Shown piece after piece: positions 22,311 to 30,627 of a stretch of DNA of 64,000 nucleotides. Below the pieces are notes generated by a model. It was not told the origin of the DNA. It was given only the letters and a program-made list of their open reading frames with translations, and made no database searches. Both the position numbers and the translations under genes were made by a program. Where the stretch lies: positions 3,707-67,706 of the forward strand of contig JBDHQI010000019.1 in NCBI GenBank assembly GCA_039806955.1, given 5' to 3'. Positions within the stretch are counted from its first letter, which is position 1. Every line of letters starts with the position of its first letter. The DNA is from Verrucomicrobiota bacterium. Lineage in GTDB: Bacteria > Verrucomicrobiota > Verrucomicrobiia > Limisphaerales > JADLHS01.

Positions 22311-22464
22311 ATGCCACGGATGCCCGCGTTCTCGTCGCCAAGTCAGTAGCTCGCGGCGTTGCGACTCCGTCAATTGCCGCCAGAGATAGCGTGGCTTGGA
22401 CAGGCCCGCACCCTGTCAGGACAAGCGACAAAAGTCAGGCATAAATTGGTATGCGCATCGGTGC

Positions 22465-22621
22465 TGTTTGTAGTGCCGTCTGAAGGCGGCACTACAAGCA
22501 GAACGCCCTCGCCGCCTGAAGGCGGCACTACGAACATTTCTGCCGCTCGCAGTCCTGCCTTTGGGCAGATTGAAGTTTCCCTTGTTGTTCGTAGTCCCGG
22601 CTTTAGCCGGGACTGCAAACA
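22465..22621. repeat. Cluster of GTAG-type REP palindromes
   Basis: tgtttgtagtgccgtc-tgaa-ggcggcactacaagca (22465-22500), ccgcctgaaggcggcactacgaaca (22512-22536), tgttcgtagtcccggc-ttta-gccgggactgcaaaca (22586-22621). Confidence 0.8.
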
Positions 22622-22722
22622 TCCAGGTCGAGCGGTTCCGCATTGCTTCCGTTCGCGTGAAATTCCACTATGTTCACGGTGGTAAAAGTGACCAGCGACA
22701 AACTAAAGATCCGATAAACATC

Positions 22723-23580
22723 ATGAAAACAAAATTGATGACAACAATCCTGGCGACAGCCATTGGTTTCAGCTTCGCTCCGGCGAGCTTCGCGCAAGCC
22801 CCGAAAGTGGATTTCCCGGCGCCCAGTCCGACGTCCACGCTGAAGCAGCGCGTCGGTCTGACGGACATTGAAATTGTATATTCGCGTCCGGGAGTAAAAG
22901 ATCGCGAAATTTTCGGCGGCCTCGTGCCGTACGGCAAGGTCTGGCGCACAGGCGCGAATGCCGCAACGCGGATTTCGTTCAGCACGGATGTCAAATTGAA
23001 CGGACACGATGTGCCCGCGGGGACGTATGAACTGTTTACCATTCCCGATGAAAATGAATGGACCATCATCATCAACAAAGGCACGGGGCAATGGGGAGCG
23101 TTTCAGTATGACGAAAAACAGGATTTCCTGCGCTTCAAAGTCAAGCCACGGCAACGCGCACGTTCCCTGGAAACATTCACCATCGGCATCAACAACATCC
23201 GGGACGAAATCGCCACCATCAGTCTGGCCTGGGACAAAACCAGCATTTCAATCAAATTTGAAGTGGATTTGACTTCCAAACTCGTTCCACAAATCGAGGC
23301 CGCCATGGCCGCGCCCGACGGCAAGAAACCCTACTTCCAAGCCGCGACGTTTTATTACAATCACGGGCTCGATTCACAAAAAGCCTTGAAATGGGTTAAT
23401 GCCGCCGTCGCCGAAAATGAAGCGCATTACATCGTGCATTTGAAGGCCAAGGTTCTGGCGCGTCTTGGTGACAAAGCGGACGCCATCGCCGCCGCGAAAC
23501 GCTCGAAAGAACTGGCCATCGCCGCCAAGGACTTCGGCTTCGTCAAGCTGAACGATGATCTGATCGCCAGCTTGCAGTAA
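22723..23580 (+). CDS. DUF2911 domain protein with C-terminal TPR-like helices, exported
   Basis: Signal peptide; PSP..TLKQRVGLTDIEIVYSRP, IFGGLVPYGKVWRTGAN. Confidence 0.88.
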   Translation: MKTKLMTTILATAIGFSFAPASFAQAPKVDFPAPSPTSTLKQRVGLTDIEIVYSRPGVKDREIFGGLVPYGKVWRTGANAATRISFSTDVKLNGHDVPAGTYELFTIPDENEWTIIINKGTGQWGAFQYDEKQDFLRFKVKPRQRARSLETFTIGINNIRDEIATISLAWDKTSISIKFEVDLTSKLVPQIEAAMAAPDGKKPYFQAATFYYNHGLDSQKALKWVNAAVAENEAHYIVHLKAKVLARLGDKADAIAAAKRSKELAIAAKDFGFVKLNDDLIASLQ

Positions 23581-23587
23581 ACGCCTC

Positions 23588-26134
23588 ATGAATCCGACGC
23601 AGGTCCCTGCTCGGTCGGCACGCTGGCTGGGAACGGTGGGAACATTGGGTTGGCCTCTGGCCCTGGCCGGCGCGCTGTGCTGGCCGGGCCGGGCGAAAGG
23701 AACTGAATTGCTCGTCGCTCCCGCGGCCATCAAACAGGAATTGATCCGTTTCAACACGATCGGCAGCGTGTTGTTGATCGCGGCGCATCCTGACGACGAG
23801 AACACGCAGTTGATCACCTACCTATCGCGCGGGCGGGGCTATCGCATGGGTTACCTCTCGCTGACGCGCGGCGATGGCGGACAAAATGTGATCGGACCGG
23901 AGTTTGACGAAAAGCTCGGCGTGGCGCGCACGCAGGAATTACTGGCCGCGCGCCGATTGGATGGCGGCCAGCAGTTTTTCACCCGGGCGATAGATTTTGG
24001 TTACTCCAAAACGCCCGAAGAGACTTTGCGTTTTTGGGACCGGGACGCGGTGTTGGGCGACATTGTGCGCGTCATCCGAAAATTTCAGCCGGACGTAATC
24101 GTGACCCGCTTCCCCATTCCGCCCGGCAGCGGTGGGCACGGACATCACACGGCATCGGGGATTCTGGGGCTGGAAGCGTTCAAGCGGGCGGGCGATCCTA
24201 ACGCCTATCCGGATCAGATCCGAGCCGGGCTCCAACCGTGGTCGGCCAAACGCGTGCTGTGGAATGAATCCAGTTGGCAACGTCGCGATAGTTTGGAAGG
24301 ACCAACCATCCGGGTGGACATCGGCGGCACGGATCCGGTAACGGGCGAGGGCTTTGGGAGCATCGCCGCAGCCAGCCGGGCGCAACACGTCACTCAAGGC
24401 TTTGCCAACTTCAGTCGCGGCAGCGGCAGTGGTCCCACACCGGAAACTTTCCGACTGCTCGCGGGCGATCCCCCCACGAACGATCTGATGGACGGCCTTG
24501 ACCTCACCTGGGCACGCTTTCCGGGCGGAGAAGAAATCGCGCAACGGACGCAAAAAGCAATCGTCGCTTTCGATCCGCAGTCCCCAGCGCGCAGCGTGCC
24601 GGAATTACTGGCCATCCGCGCCCAATTATCCGCGATGCCGGAAAATGCGGTCCTGGCTGACAAACGCGCCCAACTGGATCACATTCTGCAATCCTGTCTG
24701 GGCTTGAGAGTGACCACCACGACAGCGCGACCGGAAGTTGTGCCGGGCGAAACCGTGACCTTGACGCAAACGGTTCAACTGACCAGCGACGTGCCAGTGC
24801 GTTGGGTTGAAACGCGTTTGCGCTACCCGACGCAAACAATCCCGGCACACGCTCCGCTCACTGCTGGAAAGGACCTGCACCAGGAGCTGCGCGTCACCGT
24901 GCCGTTGGACGCGCCATTGACGCAACCTTACTGGTTGCGCGAACCGGGCACGAGCGGCACGTATCGCGTGGACGATCCAAGTTTAATCGGCACGCCGGAA
25001 AACGCGCCGACGTTTCCGCTGGATTACGTTTTCGACGTGGCCGGACAAACGCTAGTCATCCCGGATGAACCACGAGGTCGGGTCAAAGACGGCCAAACGG
25101 AACGGCAACGACGGGTGGATGTGATCCCACCGGTATCGCTGCGTTTCATGGCGGAGGTGAATCTGTTCCATCCCGGCCGCACACGATCCGTCACCGTGAC
25201 AGTGACGGCGGCACGCCCCAACCTCAAAGGCACGGTGCAGCTCGAATCTCCGACCGGCTGGAAAATCACTCCCGCCACGCGCGAGTTTGCGCTCACCACC
25301 ACCGGCGCGAGTCAGTCACTTTCGTTTGAAGTCACCGCACCGACCGGGCCGGCCACCGCACGGCTCACCGTCAGCGCCTCGGTCCAGCATCGGCGCTACG
25401 CCAACCAGCGCATTGAAATCAATTACCCGCACCTCCCCTTCATGCTGCTGCAACCCCCAGCCCAGTCTCGCTTGGTGGCGGTGGATTTTGCGGTGCGCGG
25501 AAAAAATGTCGGTTACGTGCCGGGCGCGGGCGACGCAACCGTGGCCGCACTGGAACAGTTGGGCTATCACGTCACGACCTTGACCGGCAGCGATTTGACG
25601 CCGGAAAACCTGAAAGGGTTGGACACGGTGGTGATTGGGGTGCGCGCATTTAACGAACGTCAGGACCTCGCCTCGCGAATGACCAATTTATTTGATTACG
25701 TTAAAAATGGCGGCACGGTCATCGCGCAATACAACCGCCCGAACGACCTGAAGACGCAGGAGTTGGGGCCGTATCCACTTTCGATTCAAGGTCCGGCGCC
25801 GCAATTGCGCGTGACGGATGAACACGCCCCCGTCACTTTTCTCGACCTGCAATCGCCCGCTTTGACCACGCCAAATCCCATCAGCGCCGCTGATTTCGAC
25901 GGTTGGGTGCAGGAACGCGGTTTGTATTTTCCGAGTCAGTGGGACGAGGAACATTACGACGCAGTGCTGGCGATGGCGGATCCGGGAGAGGCCCCGTTGC
26001 GCGGCAGTTTGTTGGTCGCCAAATACGGTCAGGGATATTACGTCTATACTGCGGTCGCGTTCTTCCGGCAATTGCCACAAGGCGTGCCGGGGGCATACCG
26101 GTTGTTCGCCAATCTGATTTCACTGGGAAAATGA
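23588..26134 (+). CDS. Large exported PIG-L/LmbE family deacetylase/amidase with Ig-like (NEW3-like) and C-terminal GATase-like domains
   Basis: AAHPDDEN and GHGHH metal motifs, LTRGDGGQN, RTQELLAARRLDG; hydrophobic N-terminus. Confidence 0.88.
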   Translation: MNPTQVPARSARWLGTVGTLGWPLALAGALCWPGRAKGTELLVAPAAIKQELIRFNTIGSVLLIAAHPDDENTQLITYLSRGRGYRMGYLSLTRGDGGQNVIGPEFDEKLGVARTQELLAARRLDGGQQFFTRAIDFGYSKTPEETLRFWDRDAVLGDIVRVIRKFQPDVIVTRFPIPPGSGGHGHHTASGILGLEAFKRAGDPNAYPDQIRAGLQPWSAKRVLWNESSWQRRDSLEGPTIRVDIGGTDPVTGEGFGSIAAASRAQHVTQGFANFSRGSGSGPTPETFRLLAGDPPTNDLMDGLDLTWARFPGGEEIAQRTQKAIVAFDPQSPARSVPELLAIRAQLSAMPENAVLADKRAQLDHILQSCLGLRVTTTTARPEVVPGETVTLTQTVQLTSDVPVRWVETRLRYPTQTIPAHAPLTAGKDLHQELRVTVPLDAPLTQPYWLREPGTSGTYRVDDPSLIGTPENAPTFPLDYVFDVAGQTLVIPDEPRGRVKDGQTERQRRVDVIPPVSLRFMAEVNLFHPGRTRSVTVTVTAARPNLKGTVQLESPTGWKITPATREFALTTTGASQSLSFEVTAPTGPATARLTVSASVQHRRYANQRIEINYPHLPFMLLQPPAQSRLVAVDFAVRGKNVGYVPGAGDATVAALEQLGYHVTTLTGSDLTPENLKGLDTVVIGVRAFNERQDLASRMTNLFDYVKNGGTVIAQYNRPNDLKTQELGPYPLSIQGPAPQLRVTDEHAPVTFLDLQSPALTTPNPISAADFDGWVQERGLYFPSQWDEEHYDAVLAMADPGEAPLRGSLLVAKYGQGYYVYTAVAFFRQLPQGVPGAYRLFANLISLGK

Positions 26135-26283
26135 CCAAGCCGCACCCGCCATCTGAATCGCCGTCCGAGGAAGCGCCGAATGTTCCCGGTTTCCGCACCT
26201 GGCGCGGCATTTATGTATTCGTATTGTTTTGGTTCATCGGCTGCGTTGCGCTGTTGGCGTGGCTTTCCCACGCCTTCAAATGA
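26131..26283 (+). CDS. 50-aa single-pass membrane protein
   Basis: MTKP...FRTWRGIYVFVLFWFIGCVALLAWLSHAFK; ATGA overlaps with both neighbours. Confidence 0.75.
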   Translation: MTKPHPPSESPSEEAPNVPGFRTWRGIYVFVLFWFIGCVALLAWLSHAFK

Positions 26284-27995
26284 ACTGGATTGACTGGCTG
26301 GTTCTGGTGGGAACGATGGTGGGCATTGCCGCCTACGGCACCTGGCGCACCCGTCACACGCGCAATCTCAACACGTACCTCAAGGGCAACGTCAACACCG
26401 GTTGGTTGACTATTGGTCTCTCGGTCATGGCCACCCAAGCCAGCACCATCACCTATCTTTCGCTGCCCGGGCAGGCATTTGAAAGCGGCATTGACTTCAT
26501 CCAAAACTATTTCGGCCTGCCGCTCGCGTTGATTGTGGTCTGCATTGTCTTTCTGCCGATCTACCGCAAACTTGGCGTTTATACCGCCTACGAGTATCTC
26601 GGCAAACGGTTTGACGCCAAGACGCGGCTGCTCGGCGCGGCGCTGTTTCTCTTGCAACGCGGTTTGCAGGCGGGCATCACCATTTACGCGCCAGCCATCA
26701 TTCTCTCGACCGTGCTCGGCTGGCGACTGGATTTAACGATTCTGTTCACCGGTCTGCTGGTGGTGGTGTACACCGTCACCGGCGGCAGCGCGGCGGTGAA
26801 CCTGACGCAAAAATGGCAGATGGGCGTGATCTTCGTCGGGATGGTGGCCGCGTTCGTCATTCTGGTGTTGAAACTGCCGCCCGATGCCACGCACATCGCC
26901 GGCGCGTTGGGCAAATTGCAGGGCGTGGACTTCACGCCGGACCTGAAACGCCGTTATACTTTCTGGAGCGGCATCCTCGGCGGATTCTTTCTCTCGCTTT
27001 CCTACTTCGGCACCGACCAATCACAGGTGCAACGCTACATCGGTGGCGCCGCGTTGCGCGAAGGGCGATTGGGTCTGATGTTCAACGCCGTGTTCAAAAT
27101 CCCAATGCAGTTTTTCATCGTCATGCTGGGCGCGCTCCTGTTTGTGTTCTATCAATTCCAGCCAAACACTCCAGTCTTCTTCAACCAAACCGAGTGGCAA
27201 CGTCACGCGCAAGGTTCACAAGGCGCGGAGCTGCGGATGATTGAAGCCAAGTTCGCTGCGGTTCACGCTGAGAAACAGGAGAAAATCCGCGCCTGGGTCG
27301 CCGCGCGTGATGGCGGCGACGCGACGCTCGAAAGCGCGGCCCGGACCGCCATGATCGAATCCCACCAAGCCGCCAACGCGCTGCGCCAACAAGCCCGCAG
27401 CACGTTGCTTGCGCTGGATCCCACGGTGAAAACCAAAGACTCGGATTACGTGTTCATCACTTTCATTCTGACGCAGCTTCCGCATGGCCTGGTCGGTCTA
27501 TTGATCGCCGTGATGTTTGCCTCGGCGTTGTCCTCCAAAGCCGGGGAACTCAACGCGCTCGGCACGACGAGCACGATTGATCTGTGGCGGCACTTCCGCC
27601 CCCTGGCCGTTCACGATGAAGCGCGCAACGTGCGCAATGCCAAATGGTTCACCGCGCTGTGGGGCGTTTTCGCCATTGGTTTTGCCCTGTTCATCGGCTT
27701 TGCCGAAAACCTGATTGAAGCTTTGAACATCGTGGCTTCCATTTTTTATCCGTCGCTATTGGGTGTATTTTGCGTGGCGTTCTTCTTCAAACGCGTCGGC
27801 GGTTCGGCGGTGTTCGGGGCCGCCATCGTCGCGCAACTGCTCGTCTTGCTCATCTTTTTCTGCGGCAAAATATTTCCCGCCCACGAAATCGGCTACCTCT
27901 GGCTGAATCCCATCGGTTGCGCCGGTTGCATCGGCTTCAGTCTGCTCTTTCAATGGTTATTGGGTCGCCGCAATGCCGCGATCGCCAAATCATGA
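26280..27995 (+). CDS. Sodium:solute symporter (SSS)
   Basis: GLSVMATQAS.ITYLS.PG, YFGTDQSQVQRY, about 13 TM helices. Confidence 0.93.
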   Translation: MNWIDWLVLVGTMVGIAAYGTWRTRHTRNLNTYLKGNVNTGWLTIGLSVMATQASTITYLSLPGQAFESGIDFIQNYFGLPLALIVVCIVFLPIYRKLGVYTAYEYLGKRFDAKTRLLGAALFLLQRGLQAGITIYAPAIILSTVLGWRLDLTILFTGLLVVVYTVTGGSAAVNLTQKWQMGVIFVGMVAAFVILVLKLPPDATHIAGALGKLQGVDFTPDLKRRYTFWSGILGGFFLSLSYFGTDQSQVQRYIGGAALREGRLGLMFNAVFKIPMQFFIVMLGALLFVFYQFQPNTPVFFNQTEWQRHAQGSQGAELRMIEAKFAAVHAEKQEKIRAWVAARDGGDATLESAARTAMIESHQAANALRQQARSTLLALDPTVKTKDSDYVFITFILTQLPHGLVGLLIAVMFASALSSKAGELNALGTTSTIDLWRHFRPLAVHDEARNVRNAKWFTALWGVFAIGFALFIGFAENLIEALNIVASIFYPSLLGVFCVAFFFKRVGGSAVFGAAIVAQLLVLLIFFCGKIFPAHEIGYLWLNPIGCAGCIGFSLLFQWLLGRRNAAIAKS

Positions 27996-28768
27996 CCACC
28001 GCCCCGATCATTTGTTTCGGCCAGCAACCCTGTGGATTTTTTCCGCGACGCTTTCTCTTCGCCAAAATCCAGACGGCCCGCCGGCTCCAGTTGGAGATTG
28101 GCGGTGAAATCGTGTTCTTCTATCACGACAGCGATCATGACCCGCGTGAGACGCGCACCCGGTTGCGACATCGCAAAACCAACGAACTGGCGCACCTGAA
28201 TTTCAGCGTGACGAACAAAATTCAACGCAAATTCGCGCCGTTGTTTTTGAAACGCATCACTCCGGACTGGCCGCACAAAACGGCGGCGCAACTGCCCAAT
28301 TACGTCGGACACGATTTGATGGATTTATTTCAATCCGTGGCGGCGGATAACGTGGCGGATTTCTGTCTCGAGATGTACCGGCGGCTGGGTTTGCTGGACG
28401 GCATTCGCCTGGTGCGCTCAGGCGATCCGGCCGTGCGCCGGGCCGCCTGTGAGATCGAGGACCGCTTCGTGGATGTGCCCTATGAGGGCGAAATCGTCCG
28501 CGCGCGCCTCACCCCCGAAGGGTTTCAACTTCACGAGGGCGGCAATTCCTTCTTGCACTTCCCGATCACCGCTTTTACGAAAGAACAGGTCAGCCCGACG
28601 CGCGACAGCCGTTTGCGTTGGATGCAATCGGTCGTGCCTTGCACGCATTACATCGCCGGCATGGGCGAACAAAATTATTTGCATCCGGAGGAAACGCCGG
28701 AGATTACTTTCGTGAAGCGCGATTTTATTGAACGTTCTGATGAGGCCTATACCGAAATCTCCCGCTAA
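27992..28768 (+). CDS. Short BshC-like putative cysteine-adding enzyme (258 aa)
   Basis: FGQQ, FFYHDSDHD, QVSP..SRLR and HYIAGMGEQNY match recalled BshC motifs in order; adjacent to bshB1 and bshA. Confidence 0.65.
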   Translation: MTTAPIICFGQQPCGFFPRRFLFAKIQTARRLQLEIGGEIVFFYHDSDHDPRETRTRLRHRKTNELAHLNFSVTNKIQRKFAPLFLKRITPDWPHKTAAQLPNYVGHDLMDLFQSVAADNVADFCLEMYRRLGLLDGIRLVRSGDPAVRRAACEIEDRFVDVPYEGEIVRARLTPEGFQLHEGGNSFLHFPITAFTKEQVSPTRDSRLRWMQSVVPCTHYIAGMGEQNYLHPEETPEITFVKRDFIERSDEAYTEISR

Positions 28769-29477
28769 ACCCGCGCCGCTGCTGGTCTTCGGCGCGCACC
28801 CGGACGACATTGAATTCGGCTGCGGTGGCGTGGTCGCTTTGGAAACCCGACGCGGCCGCCCGACGCATCTGGTGGTCTGCTCCCGAGGCGAAGCGGCCAC
28901 GCACGGCACGCCCAAACAACGCGCGCGAGAAGCGCAACAGGCGGCGAAAATTTTGGGCGCCACGCTCGAGTGGATAACGCTGGACGGCGATGCGCATCTG
29001 GAATTAAAGGTCGCGCACACGATCAAGCTGGCGAAGCTCATTCGCCAACACCGCCCCGGCCTCGTGCTGGCCCCCTGCCCCGTCGAAAATCAGCATCCCG
29101 ATCACGACCGGCTCGGCAAATTGGTGCGCGATGCGGCGCGACTGGCGCGTTACGGCGGCGTCAAGGAATTGCGCCGCCAATTGCCCCACCGCATCGGACA
29201 ATTGCTCTTTTACGCGTTGACGGAAGAAGTGCAGGCCGTCGCGGGCACCGCCGTGTTGATAGATATTTCCGATCCGGCGCTCGTTGCCACCTGGACCCAA
29301 GCCATGCAAGCCCACGCTTCCCAAACGGCGACCCGACGTTACGTGGAAATGCAGCTTCTGCGCGCCCGGCTGAACGGCCATCGCGCCGGTGTCGAATACG
29401 CGCAGGCGCTGTTTCCCAACGACCCGCCGCTCTTGGAATCATTAACGCCGCTGGAACGTGGCGCGCGTCATTTTTGA
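28740..29477 (+). CDS. bshB1: GlcNAc-malate deacetylase BshB1-like
   Basis: FGAHPDDIEFGCGG, SRGEAATHGT...RAREA, HPDH; directly before bshA. Confidence 0.82.
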   Translation: MRPIPKSPAKPAPLLVFGAHPDDIEFGCGGVVALETRRGRPTHLVVCSRGEAATHGTPKQRAREAQQAAKILGATLEWITLDGDAHLELKVAHTIKLAKLIRQHRPGLVLAPCPVENQHPDHDRLGKLVRDAARLARYGGVKELRRQLPHRIGQLLFYALTEEVQAVAGTAVLIDISDPALVATWTQAMQAHASQTATRRYVEMQLLRARLNGHRAGVEYAQALFPNDPPLLESLTPLERGARHF

Positions 29478-29478
29478 C

Positions 29479-30627
29479 ATGGTGGAGCGTCCCTTAAAAA
29501 TTGGCATTACCTGTTATCCGAGTGTCGGCGGCAGCGGCGTGCTGGCCACTTTGCTTGGCGAAGAACTGGCGCAACGCGGCCACGAGGTGCATTTCATCAG
29601 TTACGAACGTCCGTTTCGTCTGCCCGAAAACGCGCCGCGCGTTTACTTCCATCCCGTCGTCATCAATGACTACGAACTGTTCAAGTATCCGGACTACACC
29701 CTGCCGCTCTCCGTGCGCATGGCGGAGGTCAGCCAACAATATCAGTTGGATATTTTGCACGCGCATTACGCCGTGCCGCACGCCACCGCCGCGCTGCTCG
29801 CGAACGCCATGCTGCCCGCTGGCGCGCGGCCCCGCATCATCACCACCGTGCATGGCACCGACACCACGCTGCTCGGAAATGATCCCGGCTATCGTCCGGC
29901 GATTTATCACGCTCTGGCCAACTCGGACGTTGTCACCGCTGTCTCCAATCATCTGCGCACAGAAACCCAACGCGTCATCGGGTTCAACGGCCACATCGAA
30001 GTAATCCACAATTTCTACGGCCCGCTGCCGCCACAACGCGCTCCGGAAACCATGCGGCGCGACCTGGGGTTGCGCGATGAAATCCTGATCTTTCACGCCT
30101 CAAACCTGCGGCAAGTGAAACGCATTGACGTGCTGCTGGCCGCCGTCGCCCAGCTTCGTGATCGCCAGGACTGGAAGTTGCTCATCCTGGCCGGTGCGCC
30201 GTTTGCGCCCTACGCCCAAGACTTGCAACGCCTCGGCCTGACCGACCGCGTCATCGTGCGCGAAAAGGTTCTGGACGTGGAAGATTACCTGCAAATCGCC
30301 GACCTCGGATTGTTCACCTCGGACACGGAAAGTTTTTGTCTGAGCCTGCTGGAAGCCATGTGCTTTGGCTGTCCCAGCGTCTCGACGCGCGTTGGAGGCA
30401 TCCCGGAAGTGGTCGAAGACAATATCTCAGGTTTGTTGTCTCCCGCCGGTGACGCCGACGCCTTGGCTCAAAACCTCCGACGTTTGCTCTCCGATGCCGT
30501 GGAACGGACCAAACTGGGTAGCGCGGCAAAAGCCCGCGCGCAGGAACGCTTCTCCGCGGAAGTCATCGTGCCGCAGTATGAGGCGCTATACCGCCGCGCG
30601 TTGGAAAACCAACCCAAACACAGTTAG
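29479..30627 (+). CDS. bshA: N-acetyl-alpha-D-glucosaminyl L-malate synthase
   Basis: KIGITCYPSVGGSG, HAHYAVPHA, TTVHGTD, ESFCLSLLEAM. Confidence 0.93.
   Translation: MVERPLKIGITCYPSVGGSGVLATLLGEELAQRGHEVHFISYERPFRLPENAPRVYFHPVVINDYELFKYPDYTLPLSVRMAEVSQQYQLDILHAHYAVPHATAALLANAMLPAGARPRIITTVHGTDTTLLGNDPGYRPAIYHALANSDVVTAVSNHLRTETQRVIGFNGHIEVIHNFYGPLPPQRAPETMRRDLGLRDEILIFHASNLRQVKRIDVLLAAVAQLRDRQDWKLLILAGAPFAPYAQDLQRLGLTDRVIVREKVLDVEDYLQIADLGLFTSDTESFCLSLLEAMCFGCPSVSTRVGGIPEVVEDNISGLLSPAGDADALAQNLRRLLSDAVERTKLGSAAKARAQERFSAEVIVPQYEALYRRALENQPKHS

Follow-up and report, generated by a model that had tools for sequence, protein, structure and literature searches.

A predicted seven-gene operon of Verrucomicrobiae joins bacillithiol-type synthesis genes, with a truncated relative of BshC, to genes for an exported PIG-L hydrolase and a sodium symporter

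Analysis of a 64,000-nucleotide stretch of contig JBDHQI010000019.1 (assembly GCA_039806955.1, positions 3,707 to 67,706) of a Verrucomicrobiota bacterium, hereafter called the window, revealed seven genes on the + strand between positions 22723 and 30627. These genes, labelled g1 to g7, are found in a patchy subset of Verrucomicrobiae, where they behave as a single functional unit. This conclusion is based on their strict co-occurrence in two samples, of 201 and 301 genomes, and on the retention of all parts where the unit has become unlinked. The last three genes are predicted to encode a bacillithiol-type pathway in which the ligase BshC is represented by a putative short form, here called mini-BshC, and the first four a putative envelope module with a hydrolase and a symporter. 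We propose that the cytoplasmic pathway (g5 to g7) is fed by the envelope module (g1 to g4) in a salvage loop that may also take up foreign bacillithiol, a proposal to which we give an even chance of being right.

The arrangement of the genes had been described in an earlier reading of the window (the sequence-only reading), and was confirmed exactly: of the seven open reading frames (ORFs), all on the + strand, g1 and g2 are 7 bp apart, the next three junctions are ATGA stop/start overlaps, g5 and g6 overlap by 29 bp, and 1 bp lies between g6 and g7. There is no space between the genes for internal terminators. An 843-bp divergent intergenic region lies 5′ of g1, and g7 is followed by a convergent gene. 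A scan for promoter and terminator consensus sequences gave 2 and 18 matches respectively, against 3.2 and 13.0 in shuffled sequences, which is chance level. Because of the stop/start overlaps and the gaps of 1 to 7 bp, g1 to g7 are read as one tight predicted operon (Table 1).

Table 1. Genes of the predicted operon, with positions in the window
Gene	Position	Strand	Predicted product	Family or basis
g1	22723-23580	+	Putative exported DUF2911 protein, 285 amino acids (aa)	PF11138
g2	23588-26134	+	Putative exported multidomain PIG-L/LmbE hydrolase, 848 aa	PIG-L and NPCBM_assoc
g3	26131-26283	+	Predicted single-pass membrane micro-protein, 50 aa	Without family
g4	26280-27995	+	Predicted sodium:solute symporter (SSS), 571 aa	TIGR00813, PF00474
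g5	27992-28768	+	Putative mini-BshC, 258 aa	Profile-profile comparison
g6	28740-29477	+	BshB1-like N-acetylglucosamine (GlcNAc)-malate deacetylase, 245 aa	TIGR04001 below cut-off, PIG-L
g7	29479-30627	+	BshA, N-acetyl-alpha-D-glucosaminyl L-malate synthase (glycosyltransferase family GT4)	TIGR03999

The distribution of the genes was determined in 201 genomes sampled evenly across the phylum and in 301 genomes of the class Verrucomicrobiae. In the phylum sample g5 was found in 10 genomes and full-length g2 in the same 10. The class sample gave the same picture, with g5 in 42 genomes and full-length g2 in the same 42, and BshA scored over its cut-off in 41 of these; the exception, G584, is a genome of 77% completeness in which g5 is broken into three pieces. 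The other 259 genomes have neither g5 nor full-length g2 nor BshA. The sequence-only reading had named a module common in genomes lacking bshA as grounds for refutation; within Verrucomicrobiae this profiling against bshA did not refute the proposed link, as the full-length PIG-L protein is absent from all 259 genomes without BshA.

Gene order was compared in the best 80 of 477 g2-encoding loci from species genomes, a sample biased to close relatives of g2. Genes g4, g5, g6 and g7 follow g2 in the same order and on the same strand in 55 of the 56 loci that extend at least 4.7 kb 3′ of g2, the exception being L091, which has no match to g6; and of the 70 loci with 1.8 kb or more of upstream flank, 65 have g1 5′ of g2. 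Chance does not account for such an arrangement. The order is preserved down to protein identities of 43-60% across the carriers. Median identities to the proteins of the window over the 80 loci are 51% for g1, 58% for g2, 49% for g3, 69% for g4, 67% for g5, 62% for g6 and 65% for g7. No further flanking family is common to more than 8 of the 80 loci, and the unit therefore consists of exactly seven genes.

Genomes in which the unit is split provided a further line of evidence. In G365, g1 to g4 and g5 to g7 are on separate contigs with non-cluster DNA on their inner sides; in G528, g1, g2 and g4 lie apart from g5 to g7; and in G180 and G563, g2 and a second DUF2911 gene are found far from a g1-(g3)-g4-g5-g6-g7 block, at a distance of 2.5 Mb in G180. 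Two further candidates, G438 and G469, were rejected as mere assembly breaks. At least three independent rearrangements have therefore split the unit, each differently, and all parts were retained each time. Three different splits with full retention favour functional dependence over hitch-hiking.

Comparison with the canonical pathway suggests that mini-BshC replaces BshC in these bacteria. BshA over the cut-off was found in 11 of the 201 genomes of the phylum sample, namely the ten g5 carriers and G070, the only genome of the sample with canonical BshC. Each of the 11 BshA-positive genomes carries exactly one of the two, BshC or g5. The genome from which the window comes, which is 94.65% complete, has no match to the BshC model TIGR03998. 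In G070 the cluster consists of a methyltransferase-like ORF, BshC (521 aa), BshB and BshA, so that ligase, deacetylase and glycosyltransferase stand in the same order as in g5 to g7; unlike this canonical cluster, the operon of the window has four envelope genes joined to it. The 252-aa ORF directly 5′ of BshC in G070 (locus L099, 723-1481) looks by eye like an S-adenosylmethionine-dependent methyltransferase and is possibly NmbA-like.

The relationship of g5 to BshC was detected by comparing alignments. Against a single BshC sequence, BLASTP gave no match and hhalign a probability of 0.2%. When the g5 alignment was compared with an alignment of 26 canonical BshC sequences, hhalign returned a probability of 92.9% (E 3.6e-7, 219 columns), and 164 sequences of the g5 family against 114 BshC sequences gave 94.8% (E 5.4e-8, 221 columns); control comparisons with reversed alignments and an unrelated family gave 0.2-0.3%. 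Residues 5-232 of g5 align collinearly to residues 74-336 of the 512 of BshC, and g5 is without the N-terminal ~73 aa and the C-terminal ~175 aa of that protein. Within the aligned span, 27 BshC positions are conserved to at least 95%, and g5 has the same residue at 16 of them, namely GQQ, K25, F42, D48-H49-D50, E53, G133, S201, R207, P216, G223, E226 and Y229. A protein-language-model search (ESM-Atlas) with the homologue P0073 placed clusters of PF10079 next after those of the g5 family itself (score 0.91, 192 of 256 features). By these comparisons g5 is remotely homologous to the catalytic, Rossmann-like core of BshC. As the BshC family models fail on it and the coiled-coil domain is absent, it was not filed as a BshC equivalog, and we regard it as a truncated BshC relative that probably works like BshC. 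The gene identities given in the sequence-only reading, including a short bshC-like g5, hold, although for g5 at the profile-profile level only.

A reading of g5 as a BshC fragment or pseudogene was considered and rejected. Within the unit only g4 is better conserved, with a median identity of 69% against 67% (range 64-80%) for g5. The lengths of its relatives also speak against a fragment: 6851 proteins were found at E <= 0.001, and the best 120 of these are 250-285 aa long, 71-95% identical, annotated as hypothetical and mostly attributed to Verrucomicrobiota. The family forms 240 cluster representatives at the 50% level, many of which are fragments, and g5 gave no match in plasmid sequences.

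The two enzymes following g5 were assigned by family models and structures. The product of g7 scored 399.4 bits with TIGR03999, over the equivalog cut-off of 273.7, has the domains Glyco_transf_4 and Glycos_transf_1, and is the only copy of BshA over the cut-off in the genome. The product of g6 matches the PIG-L domain PF02585, with its metal-binding motif, at 81.2 bits, and its nearest solved structures are those of BshB enzymes, namely TT1542, 2ixd and 6p2t, the last an N-acetyl-alpha-D-glucosaminyl L-malate deacetylase 1, with E values from 4e-23 to 2e-20. No glutathione synthetase (TIGR01380) and no glutamate-cysteine ligase of the E. coli type (PF04262) was found in the host genome, and neither of its two other small PIG-L proteins is a BshB2/Bca equivalog. 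The operon is the sole recognisable thiol-synthesis route in this genome. With regard to known systems, the pathway resembles that of Bacillus subtilis, also present in Chlorobiota, Bacteroidota and Acidobacteriota, in having an orthologue of BshA, a BshB1-like PIG-L protein and a third protein with core motifs of BshC, though with 16 of the 27 conserved positions only.

The largest protein of the envelope module, that of g2, has a PIG-L domain at aa 62-197 (PF02585, 57.8 bits, gathering cut-off 28.2) with the metal-site motifs AHPDDE (within AAHPDDEN) and GHGHH, a NEW3-like beta-sandwich (NPCBM_assoc) at aa 529-600, and a conserved domain of the last ~230 aa which has no Pfam match and gave weak flavodoxin-like PDB matches (E 0.02). 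Its best NCBIfam profile is that of Mca, TIGR03446, at 43.9 bits, far under the cut-off of 277.15, and with the BshB2/Bca model TIGR04000 it scored 28.9 bits, below the cut-off of 195.25. Solved relatives of its PIG-L domain include diacetylchitobiose deacetylases. Export of the PIG-L enzyme, another point of the sequence-only reading, was supported by a signal-like N-terminal extension, with a hydrophobic stretch and basic residues ahead of that stretch, in 95 of 105 g2 homologues examined; some of the remaining 10 are truncated or masked. Five extra matches to g2, considered as a possible break in the co-occurrence with g5, were rejected as paralogues that match the PIG-L domain only (aa ~60-300, 33-39% identity). 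Matches of this separate PIG-L paralogue, restricted to that part of g2 and in that range of identity, are mostly in frames of 645-728 aa. They occur in G451, G491, G501, G574 and G394 (280 aa in the last) and as second copies in G506, G521 and G562, with the operon present or absent.

The DUF2911 assignment of g1 is clear (PF11138, 198 bits, 7e-59). Its N-terminus, MKTKLMTTILATAIGFSFAPASFAQA, is like a classical signal peptide; the C-terminal third (aa 180-285) is helical and has weak, sub-threshold TPR matches, and no relative was found in the PDB. The micro-protein g3, detected by tblastn in 53 of the 80 loci, has no family match; an alignment of 16 sequences shows a conserved GLPGFRTWRxVY motif followed by a hydrophobic helix, and g3 is a candidate small subunit of the symporter g4. 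The symporter itself scored 203.7 bits with TIGR00813 (cut-off 184) and 121.8 bits with PF00474. Its nearest solved relatives are SMVT (4e-41), NIS, the sialic-acid transporter SiaT (5nv9) and SMCT1, and SGLTs rank lower. By this ranking g4 is placed in the carboxylate/anion branch of the SSS family, a grouping that would fit a dicarboxylate glycoside as cargo. A predicted hydrolase with an export signal and an adjoining SSS importer are thus both present, as the layout of an extracytoplasmic loop would have it. Two observations concern the same proteins. In many loci (L194, L196, L200 and others) a tandem pair of DUF2911 paralogues lies 5′ of g2, one ~56-60% and the other ~32-37% identical to g1; the window has one DUF2911 gene. 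The Pfam and TIGR SSS matches of g4 are split in two, the first ending near residue 291-297, which suggests an insert of ~100 residues at ~300-400, polar and helical by eye.

Relatives of g2 were also found outside Verrucomicrobiota. The g2 member of a marine verrucomicrobial locus (L164) is 61-64% identical to named proteins of Puniceicoccaceae and Opitutae, and matches proteins of Pontibacter, Rufibacter, Adhaeribacter, Fulvivirga and other Cytophagales at 42-45% over 97-100% of its length. These Cytophagales homologues, large PIG-L deacetylases of ~800-850 aa, have the same full-length architecture as g2 and a signal-like N-terminus (alignment A6). The sequence-only reading had named a PIG-L, SSS and DUF2911 trio in Bacteroidota; of this trio the full-length Cytophagales proteins verify the PIG-L part only. 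In the Atlas, clusters of PIG-L proteins of 831-881 aa are commonest in Acidobacteriota and Bacteroidota, and the large PIG-L family (P0438, alignment A6) gave no match in viral contigs.

Based on these data, the following scheme is proposed. BshA (g7) would make GlcNAc-malate, which the BshB1-like enzyme (g6) would deacetylate to glucosamine (GlcN)-malate, and the minimal BshC (g5) would add an amino acid, presumably cysteine. Outside the cytoplasm, the exported g2 hydrolase, aided by the periplasmic g1, would remove an N-acyl group, which may be acetyl, cysteinyl or S-conjugated cysteinyl, from a compound based on GlcN-malate. The Na+ symporter g4, together with g3, would re-import the freed GlcN-malate, or the thiol itself, and mini-BshC would re-charge the returned GlcN-malate. 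The substrate of g2 may come from thiol or conjugates exported by the cell itself, or from the bacillithiol of neighbouring organisms. The parts of this scheme that we infer are that the amino acid is cysteine, what g2 acts on, what g4 carries and which way the loop runs.

The proposed activity of g2 has precedents. PIG-L enzymes include the amidases Mca and Bca, which free the GlcN-glycoside from thiol conjugates. With Mca and Bca/BshB2 the g2 protein shares the PIG-L domain with its metal-binding motifs, and their chemistry, hydrolysis of an N-acyl bond on GlcN, is the same as that proposed for g2; they differ in that Mca and Bca are cytoplasmic, whereas g2 has an export signal, a length of 848 aa and two extra domains. 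The loop as a whole follows the logic of the gamma-glutamyl cycle of Gram-negative bacteria, in which a periplasmic gamma-glutamyltranspeptidase is combined with import of the products and CydDC serves as glutathione exporter. In both, an extracytoplasmic hydrolase would cleave the thiol or its conjugates and a transporter recover the pieces; but the protein families are wholly different, the seven-gene unit is without an exporter, and the present loop is a predicted one. A bolder version would have Verrucomicrobia make a bacillithiol-type thiol by a half-size BshC and recycle it by a counterpart of the gamma-glutamyl cycle, with the large PIG-L orthologues of Cytophagales acting likewise on canonical bacillithiol. 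After the thiol or its S-conjugates had reached the periplasm, g2 with the DUF2911 protein would split off the cysteine part, a two-component Na+ symporter would return GlcN-malate, and mini-BshC would re-charge it. We put this version forward tentatively and hold it for possible rather than probable.

Several results weigh against the salvage proposal or parts of it. With regard to the ligase, g5 has no Pfam, NCBIfam or PDB match, either singly or as a 17-member profile, and none of the 17 family members matches the BshC models TIGR03998, PF10079 and PF24850. Canonical BshC has ~520-570 aa, whereas g5, with 258 aa, has neither the N-terminal ~73 aa nor the coiled coil nor the QER motif. It stops ~26 residues past the equivalent of BshC residue 336 and thus has no C-terminal coiled-coil domain PF24850, and g5 has no equivalent of three conserved BshC positions that precede the aligned span or of eight that follow it, QER473-475 and H505 among them. 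The ligase activity of g5 is therefore not assured, and canonical BshC itself is not known to have been reconstituted in vitro. The score of g6 with the BshB1 model TIGR04001 (137.1 bits) is below the cut-off of 182.5. Among known bacillithiol redox partners, YpdA/Bdr reached 45.7 bits against a cut-off of 339.9 in the host genome, and YtxJ/BrxC and BrxA/B were not found there; a classical redox-buffer role is thus unsupported.

Other points against the proposal concern distribution. The 42 carriers are confined to few families and are not independent kin, and full-length g2 is absent from G070, the one genome of 201 with canonical BshC. Full-length homologues of g2, 29-31% identical over 94% of the length, are encoded on megaplasmids of Aminobacter and Bacillus sp. 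F19, clades with other thiols or other contexts. Their copies have a full-length architecture like that of g2 but start at the PIG-L domain, without the N-terminal extension, and have no SSS, DUF2911 or bsh neighbours, adjoining instead ROK, sugar ABC-transporter, ArgH-like and PfkB genes. The architecture of g2 is therefore widespread and at long range not specific for bacillithiol. The synthesis genes in turn also occur by themselves. Thirty loci with at least 4.3 kb of upstream sequence were obtained with divergent mini-BshC sequences as seeds; 22 of them have g2 and g4 upstream and a g5 that is 56-71% identical to that of the window, and the other 8, with g5 at 41-54% identity, have neither g2 nor g4 within 4.3-8 kb upstream. 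Several loci of this sister clade have a PIG-L deacetylase beside g5, and L122 has a BshA at 421.7 bits. The sister loci without g2 and g4 indicate that the triad of ligase, deacetylase and glycosyltransferase is the older core; the envelope module was added later, in a lineage that includes the window, and bacillithiol-type synthesis is not always dependent on it.

The sugar-locus neighbours of the distant g2 homologues (ROK, ABC sugar transporter and PfkB) are also the starting point of a rival explanation, nutrient supply, in which g1 to g4 would scavenge an unrelated N-acetyl-aminosugar glycoside, for example one derived from chitin or another glycan, with g2 deacetylating it outside and g4 importing the product. 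The link to bshA, bshB and mini-bshC would then lie in hexosamine as a precursor for UDP-GlcNAc and not in the GlcN-malate scaffold. The diacetylchitobiose deacetylases among the solved relatives of the g2 PIG-L domain and the NEW3 domain, which is typical of glycan-active enzymes, agree with such a role. A generic supply of hexosamine, however, needs no strict co-occurrence with the thiol pathway (42 of 42 carriers and none of the 259 others), and it leaves the retention after unlinking unexplained. Moreover, g4 is closer to carboxylate carriers than to sugar SGLTs, and the flanks of the unit show no conserved catabolic gene such as a kinase or deaminase. We consider nutrient supply unlikely. 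Another rival would have no functional link at all, with an uptake system and a thiol pathway co-travelling on one horizontally transferred island. The unit is patchy across families, one of the two other genomes in the genus of the window carries it, which suggests gain and loss as a block, and the conserved order could reflect recent common descent. Against this stand identities of 43-60% with the order kept, which indicate an old linkage, the rearrangements, at least three and independent, after which every part was retained, and the lack of any genome among the 301 with one half alone; co-travel without function thus seems very improbable.

A third alternative keeps the functional link and changes the purpose of the product. 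An exported GlcN-malate conjugate could act in the periplasm or beyond the cell as a metal chelator or envelope redox agent, to be processed and re-imported by g1 to g4 in the manner of a metallophore, and given the truncated ligase it may contain an amino acid other than cysteine. Zinc buffering by bacillithiol is known, and the redox partners expected for a cytoplasmic role were not found in the genome; the obligate co-inheritance of the envelope module and an ABC exporter-type gene directly 5′ of mini-bshC in two sister loci also point in this direction. In these loci (L122, 6231-7973; L131, 411-2150), which are related and lack g1 to g4, the gene encodes a 580-aa protein with ABC_membrane and ABC_tran domains, 80% identical between the two, and is followed by mini-bshC, bshB and bshA; it may hint at export of the product. 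On the other side, neither the seven-gene unit nor its flanks have a conserved exporter, the unit is without hallmarks of metal uptake such as TonB receptors or binding proteins, and the BshC-core residues are well kept in g5, favouring BshC chemistry. An extracytoplasmic product of this kind is, in our judgement, a long way from probable, with a slightly smaller chance than nutrient supply. The salvage loop around a bacillithiol-type thiol remains the reading we prefer.

Published surveys offer a reason why a short BshC might have escaped notice. Hiras et al. 2018 (PMC6282198) list Verrucomicrobia without a predicted low-molecular-weight thiol, and in a 2025 survey of NmbA (PMC12719100) BshC matches of similar length were required, a requirement under which a 258-aa form would be missed. 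In the literature found on bacillithiol or BshC in Verrucomicrobia and on DUF2911 there was no description of the operon or of a short BshC, a statement that does not extend to the species lists in the supplements of PMC6282198 and PMC12719100, which possibly have verrucomicrobial entries. If mini-BshC stands in for BshC, it would close this gap in the thiol map of Verrucomicrobia, and, if functional, it would define the smallest active core of a ligase with a still unclear mechanism. The strict coupling to PIG-L, DUF2911 and symporter genes would give a widespread orphan module its first testable function, and it prompts the suggestion that bacillithiol may be recycled or scavenged by diderm bacteria in the extracytoplasmic space.

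The 283-nt leader 5′ of g1 (22440-22722, + strand) is highly structured, with a predicted fold of -122.7 kcal/mol (z -7.2 against shuffled sequences) and several perfect hairpins. Within the 4.2-Mb genome, a 21-nt palindromic motif is confined to this leader, where it has two copies (22475-22495 and 22511-22531). The leader matches no Rfam family beyond one chance-level match and showed no blastn similarity to the relatives' loci retrieved by then; it could be a lineage-specific regulatory element or a repetitive extragenic palindromic (REP)-like element.

Some homologues of mini-BshC were found in other gene arrangements. In L111 (3402-8756) a homologue with 41% identity to g5 lies between genes for a GatA-like amidase and a GNAT acetyltransferase on one side and a divergent PIG-L gene and a GatB gene on the other, and no BshA is encoded within this 14.6-kb locus. 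Giant ORFs, of 2610 aa in L154 (46-7878) and 2034 aa in L155 (54-6158), stop just a few nucleotides 5′ of a 303-aa g5 homologue (44% identity), which is followed by a PIG-L gene in L155. Operon-bearing contigs were also found under titles of other phyla, namely Sulfopaludibacter, Tepidisphaeraceae, Phycisphaerales, Methylomirabilia, Rokuibacteriota and Limnocylindria. The Sulfopaludibacter label (L088, genome G201) looks wrong, as the genome groups with the sample of the phylum to which the window belongs.

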